A stretch of 64,000 nucleotides of DNA, taken from positions 18,749 through 82,748 of the IMG/VR virus record IMGVR_UViG_3300031853_000019; one strand, given 5' to 3'. Within the stretch, counting starts at the first letter, position 1, and every line of letters starts with the position of its first letter. Under the pieces are notes generated by a model. It was given only the letters and a program-made list of their open reading frames with translations, did no database searches and was not told the origin of the DNA. This document shows, piece by piece, positions 6,131 to 21,102 of the stretch. Source of the DNA: a virus (lineage: Duplodnaviria > Caudoviricetes). A program made the position numbers and the translations under genes.

Positions 6131-6324
6131 ATTCGGCAAAATTACTGAAAAAATGAAAGATTTTCATAGAATTTTTGTGAAAAATGCTGAAAATTGTTAC
6201 AAAAATGTTAAAAAAGTATTAAATTTGTGCAATTTGTTGAAGTTTTGCGGAATTTTGGGAAAAATAAAGTGTATTTTTGTATATATTTTTTGAAAAAATT
6301 TTGTGTCAAGGGGTTGACTTTTTG

Positions 6325-6401
6325 AAAATTCGGCGCAGTACGCTCAGGAGCGCGCCGCCAAACAGATATAGCAAAAAAGGACATGGCTTTCTACCATGTC
6401 C
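6325..6401 (+). ncRNA. Degenerate hairpin-sRNA cassette (no intact promoter)
   Basis: AATTCGGCGC..GCGCCG hairpin, A tract and terminator hairpin as in the other cassettes, but no TATAAT. Confidence 0.4.
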
Positions 6402-6437
6402 TATCACTGTGGGTATCTATTCAGTTTTGGGGGAGGA

Positions 6438-6812
6438 CTACTCGTCCTCACCCTCGGTCTCCGCATCTGCGGAAACCTCACCATAGAGCATCTTGCCCTT
6501 TACCTTAGCCTTAGCAACACCCATCTGCTTGAGGAGTGCGCTTGCTCTCTGGCAAGATACATCTACCGCATTACCAATCTCGGTAGCAGTTGCGGAACCC
6601 TGTGCATCAAGGAACTCCGCAATACGAACCTTGATTTCGTCATTCTCAATCTGACGCTTAGAGGGTTTATCGCTCTTAGCATACTTCTTATCAAGCTGGG
6701 CAATCATTCTCTCTGCTACCGCAATCTCGTCTGCGGTAAAAACATCTGCCATACCTACTACCTTAGCAAGTACATCTCTCTTAGTTACACCAGTAATTCT
6801 AGCCATAGTCAT
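6438..6812 (-). CDS. Winged-helix DNA-binding protein, paralog 1
   Basis: IAEFLDAQGSATATEIGNAVDVSCQRASALLKQM wHTH; clear similarity to 12442-12804. Confidence 0.75.
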   Translation of the reverse strand: MTMARITGVTKRDVLAKVVGMADVFTADEIAVAERMIAQLDKKYAKSDKPSKRQIENDEIKVRIAEFLDAQGSATATEIGNAVDVSCQRASALLKQMGVAKAKVKGKMLYGEVSADAETEGEDE

Positions 6813-6889
6813 CTACCTCTTTCTTTCTTTTGTGATGTTTTCTGTTTACATTAGTTATTATAACAAATTTTTAAGTGTTTGTCAAGCAC

Positions 6890-7025
6890 TTTTTTTTATT
6901 TATATTAGAGGGCGGTTTCTAGGCGACTCGTGGTGCCGTATCTAGTCTAGGGCAAGTACACAGAAACCTTCCACGCAAGTATGTGTTTTAACTGCTCACC
7001 GCTTCCTTTAATATCTTTACCTTAC
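6890..7025 (-). ncRNA. Orphan ncRNA candidate
   Basis: Consensus promoter (7061-7033) followed by about 130 nt with no ORF, relatively GC-rich, pairings GGTTTCT/AGAAACC and GCGGT/ACCGC. Confidence 0.4.
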
Positions 7026-7047
7026 ATAAGTAATTATATCAGATTTT

Positions 7048-7197
7048 TTAGTAATTGTCAAGAAGTTTTTTTAATTCTTTTTTATTTTTTTGGCGGGTAG
7101 GATGTTTTGCATCCTTGTGTACCCTTGTTCCTGTATTCATATTATACCATACTCTCTTGCTCTTGTCAAGAAGTTTTTTCTTATTTTTTTCAACCAT
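7048..7197 (-). CDS. Small basic protein (49 aa, MVEKNKKKLLDKSKRVWYNMNTGTRVHKD..)
   Basis: Own promoter (7262-7234) and GAAAGGAAA RBS; not in ORF track (<60 aa). Confidence 0.6.
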   Translation of the reverse strand: MVEKNKKKLLDKSKRVWYNMNTGTRVHKDAKHPTRQKNKKELKKLLDNY

Positions 7198-7321
7198 TTT
7201 TGTTTTCCTTTCTTTCCCTTACCTTGTAAATACATTATAACAAAAATTTTTATGGTTTGCAACTTGGAATATTGCACAAATTATGGGAATAAAATTTGTG
7301 CAATATTTTTCCATTTTTCTC

Positions 7322-7431
7322 TTGACAAAAATCCCAGCGTGTGTTATAATGGAATTTCACGCGGTTTGCAGCTTTAGCGTCCGCAAACCGCGCGCCCAAT
7401 AAAAAAGAACGGCTCTTTTCCTGAGCCGTTC
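7322..7431 (+). ncRNA. Hairpin-sRNA cassette 1
   Basis: TTGACA-N17-TATAAT; stem CGCGGTTTGC/GCAAACCGCG, loop AGCTTTAGCGTCC; terminator 7407-7431. Confidence 0.7.
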
Positions 7432-7444
7432 AGATGGTGACCGC

Positions 7445-7822
7445 CTAGGCTTTAGGCGGTCTGTGTTTGGTGAGTTTCATGGTGTACTCGCTACCCTTGT
7501 AAGTGAAGGCGACCTCGGTTTCGGTCTTAATTGCCTTGACCTCTGCGCCCTTATTTTCAAGAAGTTCGGCAACCGCCTTGAGTAAGTAGCCTTTGATTTC
7601 ATCCACCTTGCGCTCCCTTGTACTAGGTTTGCGCTTGCGGTCTGACTTCTCGTATCGTCTTTCGGACTTAATGGAGTTGACCGCCTTTTCAGTTTCCTCA
7701 CTAGGCTTGATTTTACCGCTTTCCTCAAGAATCAAGTCGCAAGCCTCTGTGATACTACACTCTAAACTTTCAACATACTTGTCAATGAGGGCATCATCAA
7801 CATCAAAACCCTTATACTGCAT
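7445..7822 (-). CDS. Phage hypothetical protein (basic linker, alpha/beta C-terminal domain)
   Basis: Start MQYKG at 7822 after GAGGTG; own promoter. Confidence 0.75.
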   Translation of the reverse strand: MQYKGFDVDDALIDKYVESLECSITEACDLILEESGKIKPSEETEKAVNSIKSERRYEKSDRKRKPSTRERKVDEIKGYLLKAVAELLENKGAEVKAIKTETEVAFTYKGSEYTMKLTKHRPPKA

Positions 7823-7914
7823 TTGCAACACCTCTTTCTTTATTTGATACACTAATTATAGCATACCTTTAGGGGATTGTCAATAGGTATTTTTGATTTT
7901 TTGCACTCTACCCT

Positions 7915-8607
7915 TTAAGAGTAGAGTGCTTTCCGCATTTTCTTATGCTTTGCCATACAATATGCAAAAATTGCGGTTTCAATAATTACATCCTCAAGTC
8001 CTGTATGACTTTCAATAAAATCGGGGTTTTGTGTAATATAGCGGTAAACAGTTTCCGCTTTTACTTGCGGTCTAGGTGTCTTATGGGCGGTTACAAAACC
8101 ATTCTCAAAACAAAACCGCTTGTATGTGGGAGTTTTTGCAACTACATCTTGTACCATTTTCATAGAATCCCAAACAATAGTGCCATAAGGTAAAAACCAT
8201 CTGTATTTGCTTTTGGTTTCCCATCTTTGTGTTACATTGAGTGCGGTATCGTCAAACCTTGCATTATAGGCGATAACAATATTTGTATTGTACTTTTTCA
8301 TTACATCCGCTAATGTCTTGCGGATTTCATAAAGGCTTGCGACTTTTCTCTTTCCGTTTTTAATATCCTTATAATACTGCGGTAACTTATCCGCATAATA
8401 TGAAGATTTCATAAGGGATTTCTCACCGAAGAAAATTCCTCTATTTACAAAGGAATATTCCTCATATATAGTGCCATGCTTATCACAAACCGCAAATCCG
8501 CAATCATATACAAACATATTATTTGCGGAAACACCCTCAAAGTCCTTGTCTATGGGACACGTTTCGGTGTCTAACACTACATAATACTTTCTTCTCTTGT
8601 CAACCAT
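7915..8607 (-). CDS. DEDDh (DnaQ-family) 3'-5' exonuclease
   Basis: Exo I VLDTET, Exo II AYNARFD, Exo III HTGLEDV. Confidence 0.9.
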   Translation of the reverse strand: MVDKRRKYYVVLDTETCPIDKDFEGVSANNMFVYDCGFAVCDKHGTIYEEYSFVNRGIFFGEKSLMKSSYYADKLPQYYKDIKNGKRKVASLYEIRKTLADVMKKYNTNIVIAYNARFDDTALNVTQRWETKSKYRWFLPYGTIVWDSMKMVQDVVAKTPTYKRFCFENGFVTAHKTPRPQVKAETVYRYITQNPDFIESHTGLEDVIIETAIFAYCMAKHKKMRKALYS

Positions 8608-8842
8608 TTTCTTTTGTCCTCACTTTCTCCACCTACCTAGGTGGTTCGCTTTTTTATTTTGTAACTTAATTATACTACTTTCAGTTGAGATTGTCAAGCA
8701 TTTTTTTGAATTTTTTTATTTTTGTTTTGGCTTGCTTTCTTCATCTGACATTATTAATTATAACAGATTGGCGGGAAATTGCAATAGATAAAATGTACAA
8801 ATTGCGGGAAATAAATTTGTGCAACTTTTTTTGAAAAATCAC

Positions 8843-8944
8843 TTGACAAAACCTGCGGCAGGTGGTATAATGGAAATTCGCCCAGTTTTCGGATAAGGCA
8901 CTCGAAAACTGGGCGATAAAAAAGCACCCCATTTGGGGTGCTTT
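8843..8944 (+). ncRNA. Hairpin-sRNA cassette 2
   Basis: TTGACA-N17-TATAAT; stem TCGCCCAGTTTTCG/CGAAAACTGGGCGA, loop GATAAGGCACT; terminator 8924-8941. Confidence 0.7.
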
Positions 8945-8947
8945 GTT

Positions 8948-9115
8948 TTAGATAGCTTCTGCTCTATAAGTAGTAAACCATCCTTCATTTGCTTCTACTT
9001 GCATAGCCCATGAAAAGGCTTTATCTTCTGCTTCTCGTAAAGTTTTAGCTTTTATTGTTCTTTTATACTCTGGGTTACCAAGATCATCACAAACATAAAT
9101 ATTGTATAAATTCAT
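8948..9115 (-). CDS. Small hypothetical protein (55 aa, MNLYNIYVCDD..)
   Basis: AAGGAG RBS; in operon; not in ORF track. Confidence 0.7.
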   Translation of the reverse strand: MNLYNIYVCDDLGNPEYKRTIKAKTLREAEDKAFSWAMQVEANEGWFTTYRAEAI

Positions 9116-9128
9116 ATTAATCGCTCCT

Positions 9129-9299
9129 TTACTGTTCTTTATCTTCTTTGTTTTCTATCATTATTCTTGCAAGGTTAATTCCGAATAATACACCCTCTTG
9201 GAAGTCACTAAGTTCAATTTGGTTATCTTCAGTAAAAATTTTTCTTTCTTCTTCGCCTGCACGCTTTAAAAACTTTACAATCTGTTTTCTTTTTGCCAT
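9129..9299 (-). CDS. Small hypothetical protein (56 aa, MAKRKQIVKF..)
   Basis: AAGGAGTG RBS; not in ORF track. Confidence 0.7.
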   Translation of the reverse strand: MAKRKQIVKFLKRAGEEERKIFTEDNQIELSDFQEGVLFGINLARIMIENKEDKEQ

Positions 9300-9333
9300 A
9301 TTATTTCACTCCTTTTTTCTATGCACTTCCTGC

Positions 9334-9792
9334 CTATACGGGAAGTGCTATCTTTTCAAGTTCTGCGATTATGTCCATATTGGCATCAATCGTGTGTCCA
9401 AGTTTCCAACCCTTGCGGATTTTCTCGTTATCATCTACTAAAATCTGATAACCGCCATTTTTTCTTGTGCAGTTTGCTTTTGTAGTTCCATACTTTACAA
9501 GGTGAATCTCGTCATACGGAAAGTCATATTTTGCAAGCCAATCAAGTTTTGCTTTTCTTATGCGGTCGTTATATTCCTTGCTACCGCTTTTTGCTAACCA
9601 TGTTGTGATTGCAACTTTCCAACCTTGCGCCCTAAGGACTTTCAAAATTGCATTGAGGATGTCCATATCATACAAAGGTTTTGCTTTCTCATAAGGTGTG
9701 GTGTCGCTTGCCTGAAGATATTCAAGCCATCCCTCTACACCATAGAAGTCTGCGATTGTGCCATCCATGTCGAATACTAAAGTTTTGTTCAT
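9334..9792 (-). CDS. HAD-superfamily phosphatase, 5'(3')-deoxyribonucleotidase-like
   Basis: Motif I FDMDGTIADF, motif II ITTW, motif IV LVDDN. Confidence 0.85.
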   Translation of the reverse strand: MNKTLVFDMDGTIADFYGVEGWLEYLQASDTTPYEKAKPLYDMDILNAILKVLRAQGWKVAITTWLAKSGSKEYNDRIRKAKLDWLAKYDFPYDEIHLVKYGTTKANCTRKNGGYQILVDDNEKIRKGWKLGHTIDANMDIIAELEKIALPV

Positions 9793-9936
9793 AGGCTTTT
9801 GCTCCTTTCCTTTTCTGTAACTTAATTATAGCAAATTTATAGCAAGTAGTCAACCTCTAAATGCGGTTTCGTCACTTTGCACAAAAGTGATCTAGTTTTG
9901 GGATAATATTTTGTGCAAAATTTTTTAAAAAATCAC

Positions 9937-10038
9937 TTGACAAAAGTTGATAGGTATGGTATAATGAAATTTCGCCATGCAAACGGATAGTGCGCTCGTT
10001 TGCATGGCGTCAAAAAAGCACCCCATTTTGGGGTGCTT
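9937..10038 (+). ncRNA. Hairpin-sRNA cassette 3
   Basis: TTGACA-N17-TATAAT; stem CGCCATGCAAACG/CGTTTGCATGGCG, loop GATAGTGCGCT; terminator follows. Confidence 0.7.
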
Positions 10039-10044
10039 GGTTAA

Positions 10045-10503
10045 TTAGTTGTCGCAATAGGCTCTAAGTTCATTTAATTCATTGATGACGTCTATTACAT
10101 CATAACCCTCTGAGGTTATTGCAGTATTATGGTCAAGAGCCTGAAAGTTTCTTAATGCGTTAAGAGCATCATCTAAATATCTAAGCATACGGTCTTTCTT
10201 TTTATCCATTAAGGCTTCATTGGCTTTATTAATAAGCATTTCAAGGTCATCATCTGTCATGTTATCAAAGTTATAAAGGTCTTTCTGCTTAGGCATTTCT
10301 GTTTCTTCACTCCTCTCTAAAATAAGTTCTAACTCATTTTCAGCAAACCAATATACATAATCATTTATTGTAACTTCATAGGGCAAATCTTTATCAAATT
10401 TATCCCAATCAGTAATTATGCCAATAGTACCAGCAGGTAAAGGATGGAAATAACGATTATTTGCTATAACTGTTTTTACCTTGTCACCAACTTTAAATTT
10501 CAT
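10045..10503 (-). CDS. Hypothetical protein with N-terminal SH3-like barrel (MKFKVGDKVK)
   Basis: Start reassigned to 10503 after GAGGTAG RBS and own promoter. Confidence 0.75.
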   Translation of the reverse strand: MKFKVGDKVKTVIANNRYFHPLPAGTIGIITDWDKFDKDLPYEVTINDYVYWFAENELELILERSEETEMPKQKDLYNFDNMTDDDLEMLINKANEALMDKKKDRMLRYLDDALNALRNFQALDHNTAITSEGYDVIDVINELNELRAYCDN

Positions 10504-10559
10504 ATTATCTACCTCGCTTTCTTTTGATGTATTTATTATATCATGCAATGGGTTACTTG

Positions 10560-10733
10560 TCAACCTTCTATTTTATCTTTATTTGCCTCATACCAACTTT
10601 TATACATAGCAACCACACTTCCTGGATAGTATCGCTTACAAGCAGTATAAAAAACTGTCGACCAACAATGTGTATGGTTCATTAGCCAAACGATTAGCTT
10701 ATTAAAAATTGTTTCTTTTATCTCGTGAAGCAT
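10560..10733 (-). CDS. Small hypothetical protein (57 aa, MLHEIKETIF..)
   Basis: GGGGTG RBS; stop overlaps the -35 of the next promoter. Confidence 0.6.
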   Translation of the reverse strand: MLHEIKETIFNKLIVWLMNHTHCWSTVFYTACKRYYPGSVVAMYKSWYEANKDKIEG

Positions 10734-10745
10734 TTTTTACACCCC

Positions 10746-10976
10746 CTAAATCAACTTAATAACAATCAATCCGATTGTAATTGCCGCAAAACAAGTGTTC
10801 TTAATCTTGTCTGCAATAGGTCTGCCTAACTTGAAATCTCTAATCAAATTGATAGTGTTACCAATCAGATATGCGCCTTGACCGATAAAAAATGCCCAAC
10901 CTACTGTTACCTGACCTACCAACAGTAATCCTAAAATTACATAACCCATGTTATCCCAAAACTTTGTCTTTTCCAT
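10746..10976 (-). CDS. Small multi-pass membrane protein
   Basis: 76 aa with two to three hydrophobic segments; own promoter. Confidence 0.75.
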   Translation of the reverse strand: MEKTKFWDNMGYVILGLLLVGQVTVGWAFFIGQGAYLIGNTINLIRDFKLGRPIADKIKNTCFAAITIGLIVIKLI

Positions 10977-11097
10977 TTTTGTTTACCTTTGCACTCGCCG
11001 TGCTCCTTTCTTTATGTTGTACTTATTATAGCATGGCGGAAAGCACTTGTCAACACTTTTTAGGAAAATAAATAAAAAAATATTTTTAAAAAAACGC

Positions 11098-11201
11098 TTG
11101 ACAAAAATCCTGGGATGTAGTATAATAGTGATTTTGGGCGGGTTGCGAAATGAAGTGGCCGCAACCCGCCCATCGAAAAGAGAAGAGCCTTTCGGCTCTT
11201 C
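11098..11201 (+). ncRNA. Hairpin-sRNA cassette 4
   Basis: TTGACA-N17-TATAAT; stem TGGGCGGGTTGCG/CGCAACCCGCCCA, loop AAATGAAGTGGC; terminator 11182-11201. Confidence 0.7.
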
Positions 11202-11206
11202 TGTAA

Positions 11207-11428
11207 CTACTCGACTTCTTCTCTAATAGACTTGAAGAAATCTTCTACAATATCAGTGATTTTATTTGAGGTTTGTGAGTCAACCATAGCGAATTTTAAA
11301 AGAAAATCGTAGGTTCCATAAACTTGTGAAAGTTCTCTTAAAATATTATCTTTTTTTTCGTTAACATATTCTTCAAATTCAAGAACCATTTCTTCCATAA
11401 CAATCATCTCTTTATCATCCATTTTCAT
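11207..11428 (-). CDS. Small acidic protein
   Basis: 73 aa, GAGGTAG RBS, D/E-rich. Confidence 0.7.
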   Translation of the reverse strand: MKMDDKEMIVMEEMVLEFEEYVNEKKDNILRELSQVYGTYDFLLKFAMVDSQTSNKITDIVEDFFKSIREEVE

Positions 11429-11441
11429 CTACCTCTCTTTC

Positions 11442-11606
11442 TTAATAAGTGTCCCAACCAAGCATTTCCGCCTCTTCTTCGGTAACTGTACCAAAGCACT
11501 TAGGCTCATCAAAATACTGCTTTGCAATCTCGATTGCTTCTTCTTTAGTGTTTGCTTCTACTAAGAAATCCTCTCCTGTTACTCTGTCATTAAATTCGTA
11601 GGTCAT
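11442..11606 (-). CDS. Small acidic protein (MTYEFNDRV.., 54 aa)
   Basis: Start reassigned to 11606 after GAGGTAG; own promoter. Confidence 0.7.
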   Translation of the reverse strand: MTYEFNDRVTGEDFLVEANTKEEAIEIAKQYFDEPKCFGTVTEEEAEMLGWDTY

Positions 11607-11646
11607 GTTTACTACCTCTCTTTCATTTGATGTATTTATTATAACA

Positions 11647-11904
11647 TCAATCTTCACTTTTGTCAATAGGTTTTTCCCAATTTACCCAATTTTTTAATGC
11701 GTATTCTGTAAGTTCTTTTGCATGAAATGGAAATGTCAATTTGCTTGCACATTCCAAAAGCCACTGAAAAACTTGATACTCTTTTTCAATGAAATCAACT
11801 GTTTTAAAGTCGTTCATGTGGAAAACTGAATCGGGATGCTTAGTGCTTGCCGCCCATAATTCACATACATAATCATTCTCATCATTCTTATAAACTTTAA
11901 TCAT
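11647..11904 (-). CDS. Hypothetical protein
   Basis: 85 aa, GAGGTA RBS. Confidence 0.7.
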   Translation of the reverse strand: MIKVYKNDENDYVCELWAASTKHPDSVFHMNDFKTVDFIEKEYQVFQWLLECASKLTFPFHAKELTEYALKNWVNWEKPIDKSED

Positions 11905-11993
11905 TTTGTTTTACCTCTCTTTCTTTTGCTACCAACCATGATGGGAGAAAGCGGAATTAGTATTACTGTTATTAGTGTAATGATATCGTACAT
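11901..11993 (-). CDS. 30-aa membrane peptide (MYDIITLITVILIPLSPIMVGSKRKRGKTK)
   Basis: Own promoter, AAAGGGGG RBS, TGA overlaps next ATG. Confidence 0.55.
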   Translation of the reverse strand: MYDIITLITVILIPLSPIMVGSKRKRGKTK

Positions 11994-12149
11994 CTGCGAC
12001 AACCCCCTTTCTCTTTATCTGTTGTACTTATTATAGCAAAAAATGGCGGGAATGTCAAGCGAAAATTGCTTCACAAAAGGGTTTAATTAGTTTGAGATTT
12101 AGTAGGTTTTAATGGGATCCGATAAGAAACACATTTCTTTAAAAAATCG

Positions 12150-12255
12150 TTGACAAAATGTTGGAAGTGTAGTATAATGTTAAATTCGGCTCAGATGCAG
12201 CTTTAGCGCCCGCATCTGAGCCGTCCAAAAGGAAAGGCACTCCAAATGGAGTGCC
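12150..12255 (+). ncRNA. Hairpin-sRNA cassette 5
   Basis: TTGACA-N17-TATAAT; stem CGGCTCAGATGC/GCATCTGAGCCG, loop AGCTTTAGCGCCC; terminator 12236-12255. Confidence 0.7.
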
Positions 12256-12286
12256 TAGGAAAGGAGGTTAAACATATCTGTATGAG

Positions 12287-12386
12287 TGGAGGAGGTGGGA
12301 GTCGAACCCACGAACCAGACGGTTTGCGTGTCTGCGCTATTGCCTTTCAGCTTCGGCGGCGAAGGTACCCTTTCGCTTACACCCCC
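12287..12386 (-). ncRNA. Atypical tRNA-like RNA (100 nt) with G3-U70 and A73
   Basis: 5' GGGGGTG pairs with CTCCTCC-A; canonical T arm GTGGG-TTCGACT-CCCAC; CAGAC/GTCTG arm; expanded D region; no encoded CCA. Confidence 0.65.
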
Positions 12387-12441
12387 AAATTTTTAAGCCT
12401 GACCCCCTAGCCCCATGACTAGGGGGAGGAACTTTTTAAGA

Positions 12442-12804
12442 CTACTCTGCGTCCTCGAAAGGATTTACAGAGAACTGAGCCTTATTCTTGCCCTTTGCAG
12501 GCTTGTTGAAGATTTCGCCATTGGCTACCATCACCTTCATTCTAGCGGAAACCTTCTGAACACTGAGGTCAGTTGCCTTTGCAATCTCGGTTGCGGTTGC
12601 AACCTTACCATCTGCAAGGAACTCTGCGATAGTATCCATCTCGGCTCTGCGCTCTGCTTCTACCTTCTCGGATACTCCACCCTTAGAGTTTCTCTTATCA
12701 AGCTGAGCAATCATCTTCTCGATAACTGCCTTCTCACCCTCGGTGAAATCCATCTCAAGTGCCTTTGTAAGAACTTCCTTCTTAGTAATCTCTACCTTTG
12801 CCAT
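12442..12804 (-). CDS. Winged-helix DNA-binding protein, paralog 2
   Basis: IAEFLADGKVATATEIAKATDLSVQKVSARMKVM; shares TKK/REVL and EKMIAQLDK with 6438-6812. Confidence 0.75.
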   Translation of the reverse strand: MAKVEITKKEVLTKALEMDFTEGEKAVIEKMIAQLDKRNSKGGVSEKVEAERRAEMDTIAEFLADGKVATATEIAKATDLSVQKVSARMKVMVANGEIFNKPAKGKNKAQFSVNPFEDAE

Positions 12805-12884
12805 AATTATCTACCTCTTTCTTTCTTTATTTTGTAAGTTTATTATATCAGATTTTTTCTTGTTTGTCAAGAAGTTTTTTTATT

Positions 12885-13045
12885 TTTTTGATGTCCTAGT
12901 GGGAACTTGGCTAGACATCCCGTGGTCGATTTCATTGGCGCCCCATGTGGTTCCCGACCTATTAGCGCCCCTCACACGAGGTATTCCTATCGGGTTTATT
13001 TAGTTTGGCGGTGCTCTCATGCGTGTCACATCCTTTCCTTATCTT
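12885..13045 (-). ncRNA. Structured ncRNA candidate with tiny upstream ORF (MRAPPN)
   Basis: Consensus promoter 13082-13054; GC-rich, no ORF longer than 9 aa after the RBS; two GGGGCGCYAAT repeats; 3' hairpin GATGTC..GACATC. Confidence 0.5.
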
Positions 13046-13281
13046 ATGTACTTATTATAGCACATCTTTTTAAGTTTGTCAACAAGTTTTTTTAATTTTT
13101 TTAAGATTGTCTGCCTAGTGTTTTCTCATTTCGCGCGACAGTAGGAGTTTGCACTTAGTCTTTTAAGACGCTCTTTCCTTACCTTGTAAACTAATTATAG
13201 CAAAATTTTTTGTATTTTGCAAGTAGTAATGTTGCACAAAATATTGGGATCAAAATTGTACAGTTTTTTAACAGAAAATGC

Positions 13282-13385
13282 TTGACAAAAAACCTGGAGC
13301 TGTGGTATAATGGAATTTCGACGCTCGCACGGGTAAGGCATCCGTGCTCGCGGCGTCAAAAAAGAAGGTGCTCCCGCACCTTCTT
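13282..13385 (+). ncRNA. Hairpin-sRNA cassette 6
   Basis: TTGACA-N18-TATAAT; interrupted stem GACGC..GCACGG/CCGTGC..GCGTC, loop GTAAGGCAT; terminator 13364-13383. Confidence 0.65.
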
Positions 13386-13550
13386 GCTTATTTTTCAAGT
13401 ATTAGTCCTCTACTATTTCTTTCTCTGTAATTTTAACAGGTCTGCACCCATCAAAATCTTCATCGCTCATAAACTTCTGAAGTGCTTCTTTTATGTCGTT
13501 AGCCGTAAATCCTACGGTGCCTACAAAATCAATCTCATAAATCGTCATTT

Positions 13551-13745
13551 TTAATCCTCACTTTCTTCTTTATCTGCCTTTATAAGTTTAGGATAGATGC
13601 CGTGAACACCTGACCAAAAAATCGTCCATAATTGTTTATTTCTTTTTTTCCTAATTTTAAGGTCTAGACAATCATCTTCTTTCAGAAGTTCGATTGCTCT
13701 TTCTTTTGCTTGTTTATAAGTTTTGTAAACTTCTTCGTATTCCAT
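13551..13745 (-). CDS. Small hypothetical protein
   Basis: 64 aa, own promoter and AAAGGAG RBS. Confidence 0.7.
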   Translation of the reverse strand: MEYEEVYKTYKQAKERAIELLKEDDCLDLKIRKKRNKQLWTIFWSGVHGIYPKLIKADKEESED

Positions 13746-13793
13746 TCTCTTGCTCCTTTCCTTTACTGTAACTACATTATAACAAATTTGATT

Positions 13794-13955
13794 TTATCTG
13801 TCAAGCATTTTTTCACATCTTTCAAAATTTTTACAGTGTTGACATGAATGAACCTTGTGCTTTCTTTTAAGACATATGCTTTCGCCTACATCATTCATGG
13901 GTTTGTAGTTATTATAACCAAAGTATTTACAATTTGAGCAAATCTTCTTCTCCAT
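13794..13955 (-). CDS. Small Cys-rich (zinc-binding) protein (MEKKICSNCKY..)
   Basis: CxxC, C, HxCxxC pattern; start reassigned to 13955. Confidence 0.7.
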   Translation of the reverse strand: MEKKICSNCKYFGYNNYKPMNDVGESICLKRKHKVHSCQHCKNFERCEKMLDR

Positions 13956-14058
13956 TCTCTTGCTCCCTTCCTTTACTGTAAATAAATTATAGCACAAGTA
14001 TGATTAAAAGTCAAGCATTTTAGGAAAAATAATTTAAAAAATTTTTTCAATTTTTCTC

Positions 14059-14160
14059 TTGACAAAAGTTGACGAAGGTGGTATAATGGTTAATTCGGCC
14101 GGCTTGCAGACTTGGCGCCCGCAAGCCGGCCGAGAAAAAGAGAGAGTGCAAAGCACTCCC
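14059..14160 (+). ncRNA. Hairpin-sRNA cassette 7
   Basis: TTGACA-N17-TATAAT; stem TCGGCCGGCTTGC/GCAAGCCGGCCGA, loop AGACTTGGCGCCC; terminator to 14160. Confidence 0.7.
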
Positions 14161-14173
14161 TGTCAATTGCTAC

Positions 14174-14409
14174 TTAAATTACAAGGGTTACATTTAATGG
14201 AAATACTACATCGAAGGAATTGAAATAGTATCTTTTTCCATTCTCTAAACTGATTGTATTTGCATCATCACAATTCTCTGTTTCCTCAAGTTTTATAAAA
14301 ATTCTATCAGTCGTCATATCTCTCTTTCTGACTTATCTGAAAAAACTGCCCCAGGTTTAAGATCTGCAAAATAATACTGCTTGTTATAATTGCCAATATC
14401 AATTTTCAT
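14174..14409 (-). CDS. Two overlapping mini-ORFs (14314-14409, 31 aa; 14174-14317, 47 aa), possibly one split gene
   Basis: MKIDIGNYNKQYYFADLKPGAVF.. and MTTDRIFIKLEE..NTISLENGKRYYF.. overlap at ATATGA. Confidence 0.5.
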
Positions 14410-14439
14410 TTTATCTACCTCTTTTTTTAGGGTGCGTGC

Positions 14440-14601
14440 TTATGCACGCTCCCTCAACTTCTCTCTCAACTTTGCTACCCTTTCCGCATTATAGCGGGCA
14501 TGGTCGCTAGAACTTTCAATCAACTTTGCAACCGCATTAGCAGGTGCTTCCGCCTTTGTCTTGTAAGTTACTCCATTTGCTTCGTAAACTAAATCTCTCA
14601 T
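14440..14601 (-). CDS. Small hypothetical protein (53 aa, MRDLVYEANG..)
   Basis: Own promoter, GAGGTA RBS. Confidence 0.7.
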   Translation of the reverse strand: MRDLVYEANGVTYKTKAEAPANAVAKLIESSSDHARYNAERVAKLREKLRERA

Positions 14602-14687
14602 AGTGTTTACCTCTCTTTCTTTTTACTATAATCATTATAGCATTTTCTTTTCCTTTTGTCAACACTTTTTTATCTTTTGTTAGACCC

Positions 14688-14783
14688 CTACTCAAAGGGG
14701 TCTAACTTCGCCCAATACAGGGCTTCGGCGGGGGATAAACCCTCTCGCCTATACACGCGGAACCAATCGTAAAGTGTCATCAT
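14688..14783 (-). CDS. 31-aa peptide (MMTLYDWFRVYRREGLSPAEALYWAKLDPFE)
   Basis: Own promoter, AAAGGAGG RBS. Confidence 0.65.
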   Translation of the reverse strand: MMTLYDWFRVYRREGLSPAEALYWAKLDPFE

Positions 14784-14889
14784 AGTGTTGTCCTCCTTTA
14801 TCCTTTCGATGTACTTATTATAACATCCATCTGGTTGTTTGTCAAGCAATTTTGGGAAATTTATTAAAAAAATTTTTTAAAATTTTTCC

Positions 14890-14995
14890 TTGACAAAATA
14901 GACCGTGATGTGGTATAATAGTGAATTCGCTGCGGTTGCGAAATAAGTGCACGCAACCGCAGCGTCAAAAAAAGAAGGTGCTCCTGCACCTTCTT
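14890..14995 (+). ncRNA. Hairpin-sRNA cassette 8
   Basis: TTGACA-N18-TATAAT; stem CGCTGCGGTTGCG/CGCAACCGCAGCG, loop AAATAAGTGCA; terminator follows. Confidence 0.7.
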
Positions 14996-14997
14996 AA

Positions 14998-15204
14998 TTA
15001 GTATTCAAAGATAACTTCATCATTTTCAGAATGAACTGCGTAAACCTCTTCAACTTCACCCGCTCCCGCTTTTAGAATATCTCGAACATTATCTTCTAAC
15101 TCATCAGCAAGTTCTTCGGTGAAAGTTTCCCAAGGGATTAAAGCCTTATACTTATCATCTACTTCAATTTCTTTTGTGGCTCCATAATACACTTTTACTT
15201 TCAT
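14998..15204 (-). CDS. Small acidic protein, paralog of 16107-16316
   Basis: MKVKVY..EIEVDDK shared N-terminus. Confidence 0.75.
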   Translation of the reverse strand: MKVKVYYGATKEIEVDDKYKALIPWETFTEELADELEDNVRDILKAGAGEVEEVYAVHSENDEVIFEY

Positions 15205-15206
15205 TT

Positions 15207-15488
15207 TTAGTCCTCACTTTCATGAATCGCTTTGTATCGGCTTCCAATCTCTCCATCTAATGCGGTTAAGATATCTGAAAGACTGAAGCAAAAACAGTCG
15301 CCTGCAAAAGATGAATACATTTCTACATTAATAGTATCTCTTTCTTCTGGAGTAGTAGTACACTCTAAGTTATCGCAAATCCCTTCAAGAATTTTAATCT
15401 CTCTTCTTTTCTCTCTGTTATCAAGAGCCTTTTGAATTTCTTTAAGGGCTTTCTTTAAATCCTCTGTTGAATAATCATCGTATGACAT
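15207..15488 (-). CDS. Hypothetical protein (MSYDDYSTEDLKKAL..)
   Basis: Start reassigned to 15488 after AAAGGAG. Confidence 0.7.
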   Translation of the reverse strand: MSYDDYSTEDLKKALKEIQKALDNREKRREIKILEGICDNLECTTTPEERDTINVEMYSSFAGDCFCFSLSDILTALDGEIGSRYKAIHESED

Positions 15489-15502
15489 TTTAATTCTCCT
15501 TT

Positions 15503-15724
15503 CTACTCTCCAAAAATCTTTTCTTGACAAGAGGGGCAGAACCCAGTAATCAAGAATTCTCTAGTTACTATGGGTACATTAGGCATAGCCTTTTGAATAA
15601 GGGCGCCCTCATCTGCCCACTTGGTAAACCCCTCGGTATCAACAGAAACCTGATTGTATTGTCCACAAAGTGGGCATCTTTCTTTTACTACCGTACTAAG
15701 TTCATCTTGATAAATTATTACCAT
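15503..15724 (-). CDS. Zinc-ribbon protein
   Basis: CPLCG and CPSCQ motifs; own promoter. Confidence 0.75.
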   Translation of the reverse strand: MVIIYQDELSTVVKERCPLCGQYNQVSVDTEGFTKWADEGALIQKAMPNVPIVTREFLITGFCPSCQEKIFGE

Positions 15725-15789
15725 AATGTTTACCGCCTTTCTTTATCTTGATACTATTGTATCATAGGGTATGCTTTTTGTCAAGCATT

Positions 15790-15930
15790 ATTCTCGTTTT
15801 CTCTAGGGAAGTTGCCGTTCGGCAGTTGGCTATTTTCTAATTCCCGCCTGTCCTCTAAACAAGAACTGTACTTTTCACCATCTGTTGCGAACTATCTCTT
15901 TGAAGGGGCTTCACTTCCCGTATCTCCCTT
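15790..15930 (-). ncRNA. Orphan ncRNA candidate
   Basis: TTGCAA-N17-TATATT promoter; long-range GGGAAGT/ACTTCCC pairing and TGCCG-AA-CGGCA hairpin; only a 19-codon GTG ORF. Confidence 0.35.
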
Positions 15931-16028
15931 CTGTGATTATAATATATCACATTCTAAAGCGGGTTGCAATAGACAAGTTGCACAAAATTACGGGAATGGG
16001 TTTGTACAAAATTTATATTAAAAAGTGC

Positions 16029-16101
16029 TTGACAAATGTTGCGGCTCATGGTATAATGGATTTTTGGCGCGGCTCGATGACCTGCGGCCGGAGCCGCGCC
16101 A
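16029..16101 (+). ncRNA. Hairpin-sRNA cassette 9 (no separate terminator)
   Basis: TTGACA-N17-TATAAT; stem TGGCGCGGCTC/GAGCCGCGCCA, loop GATGACCTGCGGCCG. Confidence 0.65.
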
Positions 16102-16106
16102 CCGAC

Positions 16107-16316
16107 CTAATCTTCATAAAGAGGATATTCGGTTGCCATGTCCTCTACGTAGACAATGTTTGAGTAGGCCGTGTTCAGTTCGTTTGCAATAGTATCCATT
16201 AGCTCCTTTGAGAGAGGTATGTAGGTGTTAATGTCTGTATCTGGCTTTGTTAAGTCGGTAAACTTGTCGTCTACTTCCATTTCTGTGATGATGTTGTGAT
16301 AGACTTTGATTTTCAT
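16107..16316 (-). CDS. Small acidic protein, paralog of 14998-15204
   Basis: MKIKVY..EMEVDDK; start after GAGGTG. Confidence 0.75.
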   Translation of the reverse strand: MKIKVYHNIITEMEVDDKFTDLTKPDTDINTYIPLSKELMDTIANELNTAYSNIVYVEDMATEYPLYED

Positions 16317-16327
16317 GGCAGCCACCT

Positions 16328-16426
16328 CTACTTCCTTTTATCTCTTGTTTCTACATAGTCGCAAATCAATGCGGCAAGTCCAAAGAATAAACAGATAATT
16401 CCCATGTTTACAAAATATGCGCTCAT
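16328..16426 (-). CDS. 32-aa membrane peptide (MSAYFVNMGIICLFFGLAALICDYVE..)
   Basis: Own promoter, GAGGTA RBS, single hydrophobic helix. Confidence 0.6.
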   Translation of the reverse strand: MSAYFVNMGIICLFFGLAALICDYVETRDKRK

Positions 16427-16475
16427 TTAGTTTACCTCTCTTTCATTTACTATAATTATTATAACAAATTTGTTT

Positions 16476-16631
16476 TTATTTGTCAATAAGTTTTTTTATT
16501 TCTTGTTCAAGGATCTGCGGGAAAGCGCCCTCATTCTTTCGTGGGGTTGTCGGTCTAGGTGAAGTTGACCAGCTTTCCCGCTTGTCCTTATATATAGGAA
16601 AGGCTTTTGTAATTCTATAAATCTTTTGCAT
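16476..16631 (-). CDS. Possible 51-aa protein (MQKIYRITKA..) overlapping a long hairpin
   Basis: GAGGAG RBS; contains the GCGGGAAAGC/GCTTTCCCGC inverted repeat. Confidence 0.4.
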   Translation of the reverse strand: MQKIYRITKAFPIYKDKRESWSTSPRPTTPRKNEGAFPQILEQEIKKLIDK

Positions 16632-16636
16632 GTAAC

Positions 16637-16828
16637 CTACTCCTCATCTTCTTCGAAGTAGGCTACTAATGCAACACCAGGGACTTTATATACTTCCCAC
16701 CAACCGCCATATGCCTCAACTGAAGCTATATGGTCATCGGTGATGGGGCATATATCACTTGCCTCAACCTCAACAACATCTGCGGTTACCATTGTTCCAT
16801 CCTCTAAAAACCAAGTAAGTGTTCTCAT
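16637..16828 (-). CDS. Small acidic protein
   Basis: 63 aa, strongly acidic, own promoter. Confidence 0.75.
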   Translation of the reverse strand: MRTLTWFLEDGTMVTADVVEVEASDICPITDDHIASVEAYGGWWEVYKVPGVALVAYFEEDEE

Positions 16829-16886
16829 ATGTATTACCTCTCTTCCTCTTTTGATATACTTATTATATCATGGAGGGTTGATTTTG

Positions 16887-17006
16887 TCAACCCTCAATTT
16901 CAATTTTTTTCAAGTTTCCGTATCTTTTCTGAAAATTGATAACCTCAACTCCATTAAGTTTTCCGTTTGTCCAAACGATGTTTCTTTCAAATGTGTACTT
17001 ATACAT
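16887..17006 (-). CDS. 39-aa protein (MYKYTFERNIVW..)
   Basis: Own promoter and hairpin leader with AAAGGT RBS. Confidence 0.65.
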   Translation of the reverse strand: MYKYTFERNIVWTNGKLNGVEVINFQKRYGNLKKIEIEG

Positions 17007-17091
17007 AACCTTTTACCTTTCAACCTTGCGGTTGTCCTTTCCTTACCTTGTAAACCAATTATAACATCATCAATTCTGTTTGTCAATAGAG

Positions 17092-17133
17092 TTATCAACA
17101 AGTTTTCCACAAAATTCAAAAAAGTTATCAACA
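17092..17133 (+). promoter_or_regulatory. DnaA-box triplet 1
   Basis: TTATCAACA 17092, TTTTCCACA 17103, TTATCAACA 17125; each one mismatch from TTATCCACA. Confidence 0.65.
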
Positions 17134-17199
17134 TTTTCTTTTGTGCAAAGTGATGAATTTTCAGGATCAAATTTGTGCAAAATAACAACGAAAAACTGC

Positions 17200-17312
17200 T
17201 TGACAAATGTCGCTGGCTATGATATAATGGAATGGCGTCGCGCCAACAATTTCATAGGCCGTTGGCGCGACGCCAAACAAAAAACAAAAAAGGAAGTGCT
17301 CACCGCACTCCC
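17200..17312 (+). ncRNA. Hairpin-sRNA cassette 10
   Basis: TTGACA-N17-TATAAT; 15-bp stem TGGCGTCGCGCCAAC/GTTGGCGCGACGCCA, loop AATTTCATAGGCC. Confidence 0.7.
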
Positions 17313-17413
17313 TTAATCTCAACTGTGAAGCCTGCTTTTTCAAGTTCCTTTACATTAACCTCATCGAGTCTTACTTCGCCTACTATGATTCCATTTACTC
17401 TTACTAATGCCAT
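17300..17413 (-). CDS. 37-aa protein (MALVRVNGIIVGEV..)
   Basis: Own promoter, AAGGAGGT RBS. Confidence 0.65.
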   Translation of the reverse strand: MALVRVNGIIVGEVRLDEVNVKELEKAGFTVEIKGVR

Positions 17414-17496
17414 TTTGTTTACCTTCCTTTTCCTTTTGATATGGTTATTATATCATGTTTAATTAGGTTTGTCAACTGTTTTTTATTTGGTGGCTA

Positions 17497-17610
17497 CTAG
17501 CAGTAGTAGCCACCAATCATAGCAACAAGGTACTGTGCTTCTTCCTCTGTGCTACACTCTGTTACAGGGATCCCCTGCTCATTGAATACTGTCCAAAGTC
17601 CTTCTACCAT
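17497..17610 (-). CDS. 37-aa acidic protein (MVEGLWTVFNEQG..)
   Basis: Own promoter, hairpin leader. Confidence 0.65.
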   Translation of the reverse strand: MVEGLWTVFNEQGIPVTECSTEEEAQYLVAMIGGYYC

Positions 17611-17694
17611 AATCTTTTACCTTTCACCGATCCGGTGTCCTTTCCTTTACTGTAACTAAAGTATATCACACACCGCCCACCTTGTCAACAGAAG

Positions 17695-17726
17695 TTATCA
17701 ACAAGTTTTCCACAAAGTTATCAACA
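17695..17726 (+). promoter_or_regulatory. DnaA-box triplet 2
   Basis: TTATCAACA 17695, TTTTCCACA 17706, TTATCAACA 17718. Confidence 0.65.
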
Positions 17727-17792
17727 AGATCCTTTGGTAGAATTGCACAAAATTCGGGATCTAGGTTTGTGCAAAATTTTTGAAAAAAACAC

Positions 17793-17915
17793 TTGACAAA
17801 TTTCGCCCACTATGTTATAATGGAATCCCGACGCGCAAACGATTTCATAGGCCGTTTGCGCGTCGCCAATTCGCATATGCAATAAAAATAATAGGGTAGG
17901 CGTTCCCGCCTACCC
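17793..17915 (+). ncRNA. Hairpin-sRNA cassette 11
   Basis: TTGACA-N17-TATAAT; stem CGACGCGCAAACG/CGTTTGCGCGTCG, loop ATTTCATAGGC; terminator GGGTAGGCG..CGCCTACCC. Confidence 0.7.
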
Positions 17916-17924
17916 TTATATGCT

Positions 17925-18116
17925 CTATGCAAGTGATACAGCCGAGAGCTTTTCATTGATGGCTCCCCAATCCTCGCTTCTCGCTGTGACCTCTACCTTA
18001 TAGCAGTTCATTTCGATGATTTCCTTGCTAACGAAGGCGGGAAACTCATTGATAACCGCACTCAGCACTCCGCTATTTACTGCGCTATTGCTCATATAGT
18101 ATGTCTTACTCTTCAT
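17925..18116 (-). CDS. Small hypothetical protein
   Basis: MKSKTYYMSN.., AAAGGTG RBS. Confidence 0.7.
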   Translation of the reverse strand: MKSKTYYMSNSAVNSGVLSAVINEFPAFVSKEIIEMNCYKVEVTARSEDWGAINEKLSAVSLA

Positions 18117-18148
18117 AACATTCACCTTTCCTTTCTCTATGTGTACTA

Positions 18149-18247
18149 CTACTCCATCATGGAGTAGTAGTAAGCCTGCTCTGCAAGCGCCTCTTCTGCA
18201 TATGCCTCAAGTTCCTCGTCTGTCATTTCCTCGAACCAATTTTCCAT
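18149..18247 (-). CDS. 32-aa highly acidic peptide (MENWFEEMTDEELEAYAEEALAEQAYYYSMME)
   Basis: Own promoter and hairpin leader; no basic residues. Confidence 0.65.
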   Translation of the reverse strand: MENWFEEMTDEELEAYAEEALAEQAYYYSMME

Positions 18248-18321
18248 GTTTTTCACCTTTCAAGCCTTTGGCTTGCCTTTCCTTTACTGTATCTTTATTA
18301 TAGCATGGGTTGACTATTTTG

Positions 18322-18750
18322 TCAACCCCATTTTTCAATTTCTTCTTTTGCGGTTTTAATTGCTTTGTTACATTTAGCAATTTCATCATTCAGTTCATTG
18401 ATCTTTGCTTGTCTTGTTTCTTCCTTCTTATATTTTCTTACTTTGATTTTTTCAATCTCTTCTTTACAAGCCTTGATTTCATTGTTAAGTCTTTCAATGA
18501 AATTCATGTTAAAATCATAGTCACCTTTTGTGTAGACTCTTTCCTTTTCTCCTTCTCCAATGATAACGCGGTTATCTTCATCTACATAGTAGATATTCTC
18601 ACAAATCTCGCTATCACGAGCGCCCTGGTCTAAAAGAAACTTCTTTGCGCTTTCCTTAGTAGCAAAAGTCTTTGTTGTGTATCCACCATGGTCGCAAGTT
18701 ACAAATCTGTCATAATATGTTGCATCAAATACTCTCATCATTTCTTTCAT
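18322..18750 (-). CDS. Hypothetical protein with C-terminal coiled coil
   Basis: 142 aa; own promoter and hairpin leader. Confidence 0.75.
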   Translation of the reverse strand: MKEMMRVFDATYYDRFVTCDHGGYTTKTFATKESAKKFLLDQGARDSEICENIYYVDEDNRVIIGEGEKERVYTKGDYDFNMNFIERLNNEIKACKEEIEKIKVRKYKKEETRQAKINELNDEIAKCNKAIKTAKEEIEKWG

Positions 18751-18835
18751 GTTCGTTTACCTTTAGTCCTTGTGGACTTCCTTTCCTTTACTGTAACTAA
18801 AGTATATCATACTCCATCCGGTCTGTCAATAAAAG

Positions 18836-18877
18836 TTATCAACAAAATAAAAAAAGTTTTCCACAAAGTTATCAACA
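18836..18877 (+). promoter_or_regulatory. DnaA-box triplet 3
   Basis: TTATCAACA 18836, TTTTCCACA 18857, TTATCAACA 18869. Confidence 0.65.
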
Positions 18878-18941
18878 TCTTGATCCGTCAAATTGCACAA
18901 AATTAGGAAAAAATTTTGTGCAATTTTTTTTAAAAAAACAC

Positions 18942-19052
18942 TTGACAAAATCTGTTGACTATGATATAATGGTTGTTCGATGCGCTTGCGATTCGCACAG
19001 CCGCAAGCGCATCGCCAATAAAAAAAATAGCCATCCGCTTGCGCAGATGGCT
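18942..19052 (+). ncRNA. Hairpin-sRNA cassette 12
   Basis: TTGACA-N17-TATAAT; stem CGATGCGCTTGCG/CGCAAGCGCATCG, loop ATTCGCACAGC; terminator AGCCATC..GATGGCT. Confidence 0.7.
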
Positions 19053-19204: not shown

Positions 19205-19306
19205 TGTTTTTTACCTTTCAACACTTTTTTGTGTTGTCCTTTCCTTTATCTTGAATTCATTATAACAAAAAAATGCTTGTTTGTCAAGCATTTTTTTAAA
19301 AGTTTT

Positions 19307-21029: not shown

Positions 21030-21102
21030 ATTATATCAAATTTTTTCTTTCTTGTCAAATTAATTAAATCTTCTTGACTTCTCGAAAAATTTTTAGTATA
21101 AT
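21030..21102. promoter_or_regulatory. Divergent sigmaA promoters
   Basis: Minus TTGACA-N17-TATAAT before the macro gene; plus TTGACT-N17-TATAAT at 21074-21102. Confidence 0.8.

Follow-up and report, generated by a model that had tools for sequence, protein, structure and literature searches.

Introduction

The closest described relatives of the element discussed here are the promoter-early stem-loop (PeSL) cassettes of T4-type phages. These are co-oriented with genes, end in a Shine-Dalgarno (SD) sequence and a start codon, and have a stem-loop that terminates upstream transcription; their position varies between related phages and they are likely substrates for homologous recombination (Arbiol et al. 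2010, PMC2839356). In this work we describe twelve plus-strand units, each a promoter followed by a GC-rich hairpin, between positions 6,325 and 19,052 of a 64,000-nucleotide stretch of the genome of a rumen phage (Caudoviricetes; IMG/VR record IMGVR_UViG_3300031853_000019). The analysed genome is a single contig of 82,748 bp with 35% GC; the stretch, which we call the window, is its bases 18,749-82,748, and positions given below are those of the window. We tentatively read the units as elements that mark the boundaries between early operons.

Like PeSL cassettes, the units pair a GC stem-loop with a strong early promoter of the sigma-70 type that has an A/T-rich tract upstream, and they occur in many copies, at shifting positions, in an early region that is plastic and rich in small ORFans. 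The differences are that the promoter here opposes all of the genes and drives no open reading frame (ORF), that a separate terminator serves the neighbouring operon, that the palindrome sits at +1 and has large loops grouped in families, and that the unit includes a boxed, divergent partner promoter. An earlier note on this sequence had named PeSL as a partial precedent, and it is indeed the closest known kind, although the co-oriented downstream gene, a defining feature of PeSL, is absent here. We found no earlier description of the unit as a whole in the literature or the databases searched, Rfam included, and literature searches returned none either, whether directed at the box sequences or at antisense promoter-hairpin units of phages.

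Several other systems share part of the design. In cis-antisense RNAs such as the plasmid ctRNAs, P22 sar/Pant and the Firmicute pairs RatA/txpA and SR4/bsrG, a strong constitutive promoter faces another transcription unit, as it does here, and the product is a short untranslated RNA with a 5' recognition hairpin and a second hairpin. The likeness extends to perfectly complementary sense and antisense hairpins in a face-to-face variant of the units. However, our units overlap the 3' terminator region of the neighbour, with leader overlap only in that face-to-face variant of other phages, and they have loops of 9-15 nt rather than 5-8 nt and 12 copies per genome. Unit 2 scored 23.7 bits against the Rfam family ctRNA_pGA1 (RF00236), for which the gathering score is 45 (E=0.5), so this is no family match. 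Type I toxin-antitoxin pairs differ in that the converging genes here are not hydrophobic toxins, as judged by reading 8948-9115; the converging units include a 135-aa protein, a 55-aa soluble protein, winged helix-turn-helix (wHTH) regulators and a tRNA-like RNA. RNA anti-CRISPRs, which are solitary repeat units, are argued against by twelve differing stems, 9-15-nt loops and no shared 3' handle. Finally, 5'-terminal stem-loops and polypurine tracts are established RNA stabilisers in B. subtilis and E. coli (PMC3997798). The known cases (ompA, aprE, ermC, SP82; PMC3997798) resemble our units in that the hairpin lies 0-2 nt from the predicted 5' end, but they are found on mRNAs, whereas our units have no coding sequence downstream and carry long, conserved loops.

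In large gut and rumen phages the early regions lack annotation for the most part. The arrangement described here is a compact element of their grammar that recurs about once per kb in the early regions of many uncultured phages, and whatever its function it provides a sequence signature by which early regions and the limits of modules can be recognised in phage contigs from metagenomes.

Results

Between 6.4 and 21 kb all credible genes are small, lie on the minus strand and stand singly or in groups behind consensus sigma-A promoters; 28 consensus matches on the minus strand fall within this region, out of 37 genome-wide. On the plus strand, a regular-expression scan of the 82,748-bp genome and a separate consensus scan gave the same result, with perfect TTGACA-N17/18-TATAAT promoters at 7322, 8843, 9937, 11098, 12150, 13282, 14059, 14890, 16029, 17200, 17793 and 18942. 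These are the twelve promoters, at the same coordinates, that the earlier note had listed. A TG precedes the -10 element in 10 of the 12, and A/T tracts lie upstream. In eleven units a perfect, GC-rich stem of 10-15 bp closing a loop of 9-15 nt follows 4-9 nt after the -10 element, as had been claimed, and in unit 6 the stem is bulged. The hairpins start 0-2 nt from the predicted RNA 5' end and their folding z-scores range from -3.5 to -9.7.

The hairpin is specific to these promoters. All 12 plus-strand units have it, compared with none of the 37 minus-strand promoters genome-wide. The coding leaders of the phage carry polypurine SD-like 5' ends instead, and a sigma-like gene driven by the plus-strand promoter at 21074 is preceded by an ordinary SD leader with no hairpin. 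We found no SD sequence or ORF downstream of the twelve promoters, and the plus strand is free of genes over as much as 14 kb. The real genes in 6.4-21 kb are all on the minus strand, and the description of the units as non-coding and opposed to every gene is thus correct. The array is far from chance and its promoter-driven, non-coding, repeated units are genuine. That the hairpin is in register with the expected start site speaks for a function at the RNA's 5' end.

Each plus-strand promoter, P(+), stands back-to-back with P(-), the promoter of the next early operon (operon B), in 12 of 12 cases. The distance from -35 to -35 is 45 bp in units 4, 7 and 8, 59-60 bp in units 1, 2, 6 and 9, 84-92 bp in units 3 and 5, and 105-114 bp in units 10-12. 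Read along the plus strand, the arrangement, which we call a node, consists of the leftward P(-), usually a set of boxes, an UP-like A/T tract, P(+), the GC palindrome, an A-rich spacer of 5-15 nt and the terminator of the converging operon (operon A), into whose 3' end P(+) points head-on. The boxes, TGCACAAA ... GGGA ... TTTGTGCAA, lie between the two promoters in 8 of the 12 units.

A second hairpin is present in 11 of the 12 units and its A-tract is always on the 5' side, where it forms the U-tract of the minus strand, which makes this hairpin the terminator of the converging minus-strand unit. A T-tract on the plus strand is seen in units 2, 6 and 8, weakly in unit 3, and in unit 1 through a separate hairpin at 7439-7461. 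The same bias is apparent in 58 distinct cassettes (as we call the units when counting them across many phages), where the mean count is 5.3 A in the 8 nt before the second hairpin and 2.3 T in the 8 nt after it; at least five T follow in 3 of the 58. The palindrome itself has a U-tract on neither strand, with the separate terminator 5-15 nt away, and the spacer between the two measures 5-14 nt in 41 of 87 cassettes. It had been proposed that 11 of the 12 units end in bidirectional terminators. We find these to be mostly one-way, with 4-5 of the 12 able to stop a plus-strand RNA, and a uniform set of 45-120-nt RNAs ended by such terminators is not supported for the same reason. Since the terminators are mostly one-way, most P(+) transcripts should run antisense into the neighbouring operon.

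The node is not confined to this genome. A pattern scan of IMG/VR and of species genomes gave about 180 loci, and hairpin statistics were taken over 1.19 Mb, made up of 118 IMG/VR loci and this genome. A hairpin followed 162 of 2339 promoter matches compared with 13 of 2246 control positions, and its offset peaked at 7-8 nt after the -10 element. The node recurring in relatives contains the boxes, an UP-like tract, a promoter ending TATAATGGAAttt, the GC palindrome, a C/A-rich spacer and the terminator of a converging gene or tRNA. The boxes were found in 72, 60 and 91 of 114 distinct cassettes, compared with 1-2 of 107 controls. Cassettes in four loci (L098, L027, L133 and L004) likewise face tRNA or tRNA-like genes. 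At least two cassettes occur in 47 loci from IMG/VR and metagenome-assembled genomes (MAGs), and these have early gene families in common, among them a HAD-like protein, a DEDDh-type exonuclease (by motif reading) and the 135-aa protein. The cassettes oppose the conserved families almost without exception (57:1, 35:1 and 35:0 for families F1, F2 and F3), and the few families on the same strand we take to be shadow ORFs of wHTH genes. In this genome the wHTH gene at 6438-6812(-) is overlain by a longer open frame on the opposite strand, 6396-6854(+), and ORF callers may pick the wrong strand at wHTH genes both here and in the relatives (families F5, F6, F10 and F13).

The position of the cassettes relative to conserved genes varies between phages. 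This shuffling became apparent in the comparison of gene order that the earlier note had suggested, and it fits the idea of recombination points. Contigs of relatives also switch between cassette copies, with the joints at the cassettes and short sides at 85% likeness. A subtype seen in many contigs has an 8-bp stem and an 11-nt loop between face-to-face promoters, at an offset of 7-8 nt from one of them and of 2-4 nt from the other, so that both strands of its hairpin are predicted to be transcribed. Hits in genome collections are phage-like contigs within MAGs labelled mostly Ruminococcus or Clostridia, and from this binning the host is probably Ruminococcus-like. The cultured Enterococcus phage EF1 (locus L185) shares two proteins, and its early region contains two weak analogues at most, at about 16086 and 18038 on the minus strand of the locus, where antisense promoters with small hairpins face terminators. 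No cassettes were found in 1-50 kb of Phass-1.

The twelve hairpins align without gaps or nearly so over a common length of about 37 nt, and 91.6% of the cells in the alignment (12 pairs) are paired. Double changes number 43 compared with 11.6 in shuffles (0 of 500 reached this), and the signal is lost when the partner columns are slid. One-sided changes, and hence G-U pairs, number 0 among the 143 cells (12 pairs in 12 units), and at the stem borders of 114 cassettes G-T is not commoner than A-C (13 versus 29). These counts replace a test of internal G-U against A-C that allowed mismatches, which was discarded because the stems were mis-registered. The element is a strict Watson-Crick palindrome, and the absence of G-U pairs implies that it is constrained on both strands or maintained at the level of DNA. 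The natural covariation put forward earlier thus stands in that the stems vary yet stay paired well beyond shuffles, but it does not serve as proof of RNA structure, because constraint on both strands or homogenisation of the arms in DNA fits equally well.

The loop families and the inner cores TTGC(G)/(C)GCAA and AAACG/CGTTT are seen in the alignment as previously described. In all 12 loops of this genome the 5' half is rich in A/U, the 3' half is rich in G/C and the last base is C; units 1, 5 and 7, and likewise 4 and 8, are examples of loops that form a family while their stems diverge. The loop of unit 12 together with the top 3 bp is identical in three other loci (L065, L073 and L171) whose stems differ and whose flanks are unrelated. 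The loops of units 4 and 8 are found again in L098 and L071, and AGGAACG and GCCGATGG loops are found on differing stems in other phages. Across the phage clade the loops are very diverse. A GGA loop motif of the CsrA type was considered and set aside: it occurs in the loops of some relatives and in none of this genome's. The suggested search of Rfam gave nothing for the units at the gathering level, with only chance-level two-hairpin matches at E<=5.

Discussion

We favour the interpretation of the nodes as operon-boundary elements, in which hairpin-capped counter-transcripts insulate and trim neighbouring early operons and the nodes also act as PeSL-like recombination linkers. We would place this somewhat short of probable. 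The start-site register, the restriction to non-coding promoters, the convergent orientation, the one-way coupling to a terminator and the invariant divergent partner all point to a boundary role in cis, and unit 9, which adjoins a gene without a terminator of its own, also counts in its favour. An insulator or recombination point had been offered before as an alternative or addition to small RNAs, and given the operon junctions, the shuffled positions and the likeness to PeSL it is the better fit to the context.

Such a boundary could work as follows. From the placement of P(+), transcription would start at the first base of the palindrome, and the RNA would carry a 5'-terminal clamp hairpin that shields it, although untranslated, from decay dependent on the 5' end. 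This RNA would be a cis counter-transcript of variable length over the terminator and 3' part of operon A, possibly trimmed to a two-hairpin RNA of about 70-110 nt. With P(+) occupied nearly permanently, head-on polymerases and antisense pairing would halt and destroy read-through from operon A. The P(-) promoter of operon B would consequently not be occluded and each module could be expressed autonomously. As a conserved repeat of 100-250 bp the node might also be a linker at which homologous recombination reshuffles the early modules. A device of this kind would explain how dozens of tiny host-takeover genes can be autonomous, swappable modules, and it would offer ready-made insulated promoter parts for Clostridia-type hosts.

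There are several points that weigh against this interpretation. The P(+) promoters and their start sites are predictions. Strong convergent transcription should cost expression of operon A. The plus-strand terminators usable in 4-5 units are what discrete small RNAs would have, and a purely plus-strand RNA element would not be expected to lack G-U pairs completely. Loops of 9-15 nt, and their conservation on differing stems, go beyond what a simple 5' clamp or roadblock requires. The large conserved loops and the perfect palindromy are left unexplained by a boundary role, which keeps two rivals alive, one based on trans-acting RNA and one on the palindrome as DNA.

The first of these holds that the units make abundant small RNAs of about 70-110 nt with two hairpins, whose loops are displayed as a decoy, a sponge or a kissing-loop guide. 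We consider this unlikely, though it accounts well for large loops that come in families and are conserved as the stems diverge, for their uniform A/U-rich 5' and G/C-rich 3' halves, for promoters of predicted maximal strength with a 5' hairpin giving stability, and for the plus-strand terminators just mentioned. A possible lead to a partner is at 12927-12970, where 9-mers of loops 5, 7 and 11 cluster, so that a minus-strand leader over this segment would be complementary to these loops. However, the candidate target RNA, 12880-13048(-), is unstructured, and identity on the same strand is explained equally well by homology. When the loops were scanned one by one with RNAduplex over both genome strands, self-antisense sites were the only result and no target stood out. 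Three loop apices searched exactly and with 3 mismatches in three Ruminococcus-like genomes, the true host not being identified, gave counts like those of a reversed-pattern control. The diversity of the loops across the clade, the lack of a defined 3' end in most units and of G-U pairs in the stems, and the strict position of the units at terminators and their strict orientation, which suggest a role in cis, count further against trans-acting RNAs. If the hairpins do act in trans they would be a new class of phage small RNAs. A more specific proposal, which we find similarly doubtful, is that a clade of Ruminococcus-type phages keeps a library of highly expressed, 5'-clamped hairpin RNAs at every early-operon junction, with conserved apical loops recognised by host or phage partners (as decoys against RNA-targeting defences or sponges for an RNA-binding regulator) and with the palindromy coming from both strands being expressed face-to-face as kissing partners in some phages.

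In the second rival the selected element is the DNA palindrome or repeat itself, a PeSL-like recombination linker or a topology site at convergent zones, and the RNA is incidental. PeSL elements recombine within their stem-loops (PMC2839356). The shuffled cassette positions, the contigs of relatives that join differing copies, and perfect Watson-Crick stems with 0 one-sided changes, as would come from template switching or use of both strands, are all in line with this. Still, a pure DNA site has no need for a fixed register of 7-8 nt with the -10 element, the palindrome is missing from the promoters that drive genes, and the conservation of the loops is left unaccounted for. By the twin-domain model, DNA between converging polymerases is positively supercoiled, and this disfavours cruciforms in the very zone where the palindromes lie. 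For these reasons we think a selected DNA palindrome quite unlikely.

A third possibility turns on the partner promoter. P(+) might boost or regulate P(-), either because it makes freshly injected DNA locally negatively supercoiled or because the two share a regulator at the boxes, and the hairpin would then make the by-product harmless. The invariant pairing with P(-) at quantised distances of 45, 60, 90 and 110 bp speaks for such coupling, as do the conserved boxes between the promoters and the wHTH regulator genes that are common neighbours. Dozens of phages have the box pair, spaced as TGCACAAA-N4-5-GGGA ... TTTGTGCAA, between their divergent early promoters. Its half-sites are conserved and do not covary, which makes a protein site more likely, and the pair is probably the operator of some regulator, for which the paralogous wHTH genes at 6438-6812 and 12442-12804 are candidates. 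An alternative use of the upstream inverted boxes as a plus-strand terminator was rejected, as only unit 12 passes the scan. However, both promoters already match the consensus, there is no selection for prompt termination on the plus strand, and the loop families and the tight spacing of the terminator are not explained, so that promoter coupling as the main function strikes us as improbable.

Lastly, loading sites of the nut, put or Q kind, at which a phage factor would make polymerase terminator-resistant so that rightward transcripts silence early genes and run to the late block, can nearly be dismissed, for although all units point to the late genes with a hairpin at the 5' end of the nascent RNA and several loops hold -10-like words (GATAAG, GATAGT, AATAAG), several factors would be required for 12 sites whose loops form six or more families, no such words occur in the 8-bp/11-nt family of relatives, the late block has its own promoter and sigma-like gene, and the hairpins of HK022 put and lambda nut precede same-strand genes and terminators to be read through, which is not so here.

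Features of the window

The units can be located individually as follows, with all of them on the plus strand. To the left of the array a relic at 6313-6356 combines TTGACT with a GC hairpin, lacks a -10 element and is followed by a minus-strand terminator at 6378-6402, in agreement with the promoterless relic noted before near 6325. Unit 1 (7273-7397) has boxes at 7273-7302, its promoter at 7322-7350 and its hairpin at 7358-7397, with P(-) at 7262, a minus terminator at 7407-7431 and then its own plus terminator-like hairpin. Unit 2 (8794-8916) has boxes at 8794-8823, the promoter at 8843-8871, the hairpin at 8878-8916, a two-way terminator at 8921-8944 and P(-) at 8784. In unit 3 (9878-10009) the boxes are at 9878-9917, the promoter at 9937-9965, the hairpin at 9973-10009 and P(-) at 9853, and the second hairpin, at about 10016-10037, has a weak T-tract.

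Unit 4 (11098-11172) has no TGCACAAA boxes; its promoter is at 11098-11126, its hairpin at 11135-11172, its minus-only terminator at 11181-11202 and P(-) at 11053. Unit 5 (12150-12223) consists of a promoter at 12150-12178 and a hairpin at 12187-12223, with a minus-only terminator at 12235-12256 and P(-) at 12058, and it faces the tRNA-like RNA at 12284-12386(-). Unit 6 (13233-13357) has a box at 13233-13240, an N18 promoter at 13282-13311, the bulged hairpin at 13320-13357, a two-way terminator at 13362-13385 and P(-) at 13222. Unit 7 (14059-14134) has its promoter at 14059-14087, hairpin at 14094-14134, minus-only terminator at 14141-14161 and P(-) at 14014. For unit 8 (14890-14964) the promoter, again N18, is at 14890-14919 and the hairpin at 14928-14964; the terminator at 14972-14995 is called on both strands and P(-) is at 14845.

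Unit 9 (15979-16101), with boxes at 15979-16010, promoter at 16029-16057, hairpin at 16065-16101 and P(-) at 15969, has no terminator and adjoins the stop codon of the gene at 16107-16325(-). Unit 10 (17140-17275) carries two direct TTTGTGCA boxes at 17140-17179, the promoter at 17200-17228, the hairpin at 17233-17275, a minus-only terminator at 17290-17314 and P(-) at 17086. Unit 11 (17744-17865) has boxes at 17744-17773, the promoter at 17793-17821, the hairpin at 17829-17865, a minus-only terminator at 17893-17916 and P(-) at 17688. Unit 12 (18894-19014) has boxes at 18894-18922, the promoter at 18942-18970, the hairpin at 18978-19014, a minus-only terminator at 19029-19052 and P(-) at 18829. 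In units 10-12 co-oriented DnaA-box-like triplets (TTATCAACA, TTTTCCACA, TTATCAACA) sit between P(-) and the boxes, at 17092-17133, 17695-17726 and 18836-18877; they could mark a replication origin or a site of DnaA titration.

The genome encodes a portal, a terminase-like protein, a sigma-like factor, tail proteins, NrdD and a fragment of a DnaE-type polymerase, and the late genes occupy 21-57 kb. The nearest relatives of the portal are in an uncultured gut phage (59%), Phass-1 (37%) and 140-kb Enterococcus siphophages (30%). Hairpin promoters of the N4 type for a virion RNA polymerase were considered and dropped: the portal's relatives are large siphophages, and the giant ORFs appear to belong to the tail module. 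Megablast of the region against GenBank phages gave zero matches, a distant blastn search with one cassette matched only promoter-like words in Bacillus phages, and a search for related loci using a 142-aa early protein gave no match. The sequence is present in bovine-gut DNA sequencing runs. In one RNA run (X24) identical contigs cover the minus-strand gene regions 6401-6999, 7041-7191, 7534-8190, 12440-12751 and 16132-16436; none covers a cassette, but contigs cannot reveal small RNAs, strand or ends, and so this is uninformative either way.

The tRNA-like RNA at 12284-12386(-) has a canonical T arm and a CCA-like end and lies in the same orientation as the wHTH gene. It matches Rfam tmRNA with 30.6 bits (E 3.7e-9), which is below gathering, and gets no call from ARAGORN, which found no tRNAs on the sequence. 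The 230-aa early protein at 7915-8607(-) has the motifs DxE, NARFD and HxxxxD, which we read as those of a DEDDh-type exonuclease, with no hit in Pfam. It is conserved in 26 cassette-bearing loci and has 38% identity to a protein of the Enterococcus 140-kb siphophages, one of which annotates the homologue as an exodeoxyribonuclease.

Five minus-strand early leaders, at 17021-17060, 17625-17665, 18261-18300, 18765-18800 and 19219-19255, have one conserved layout, which runs from a polypurine SD-like 5' end (AAAGGAAAGG) through a small hairpin and a second SD (AAAGGTAAAA) to ATG. This layout resembles ribosome-binding 5' stabilisers, and read on the plus strand the same sites look like weak terminators. 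At 6890-7260, 12880-13220 and 15790-15970(-) tandem consensus promoters are separated by ORF-free stretches of 70-170 nt, one of which begins with an SD plus ATG-TGA (about 13030); most of these stretches show no folding beyond that of shuffles. Immediately to the left of the early module, at 5633-5852(+), a TTGAAA-17-TATAAT promoter is followed by strong plus-strand terminators at 5778-5804 and 5826-5852 with no ORF, and this may be a further small RNA unit.

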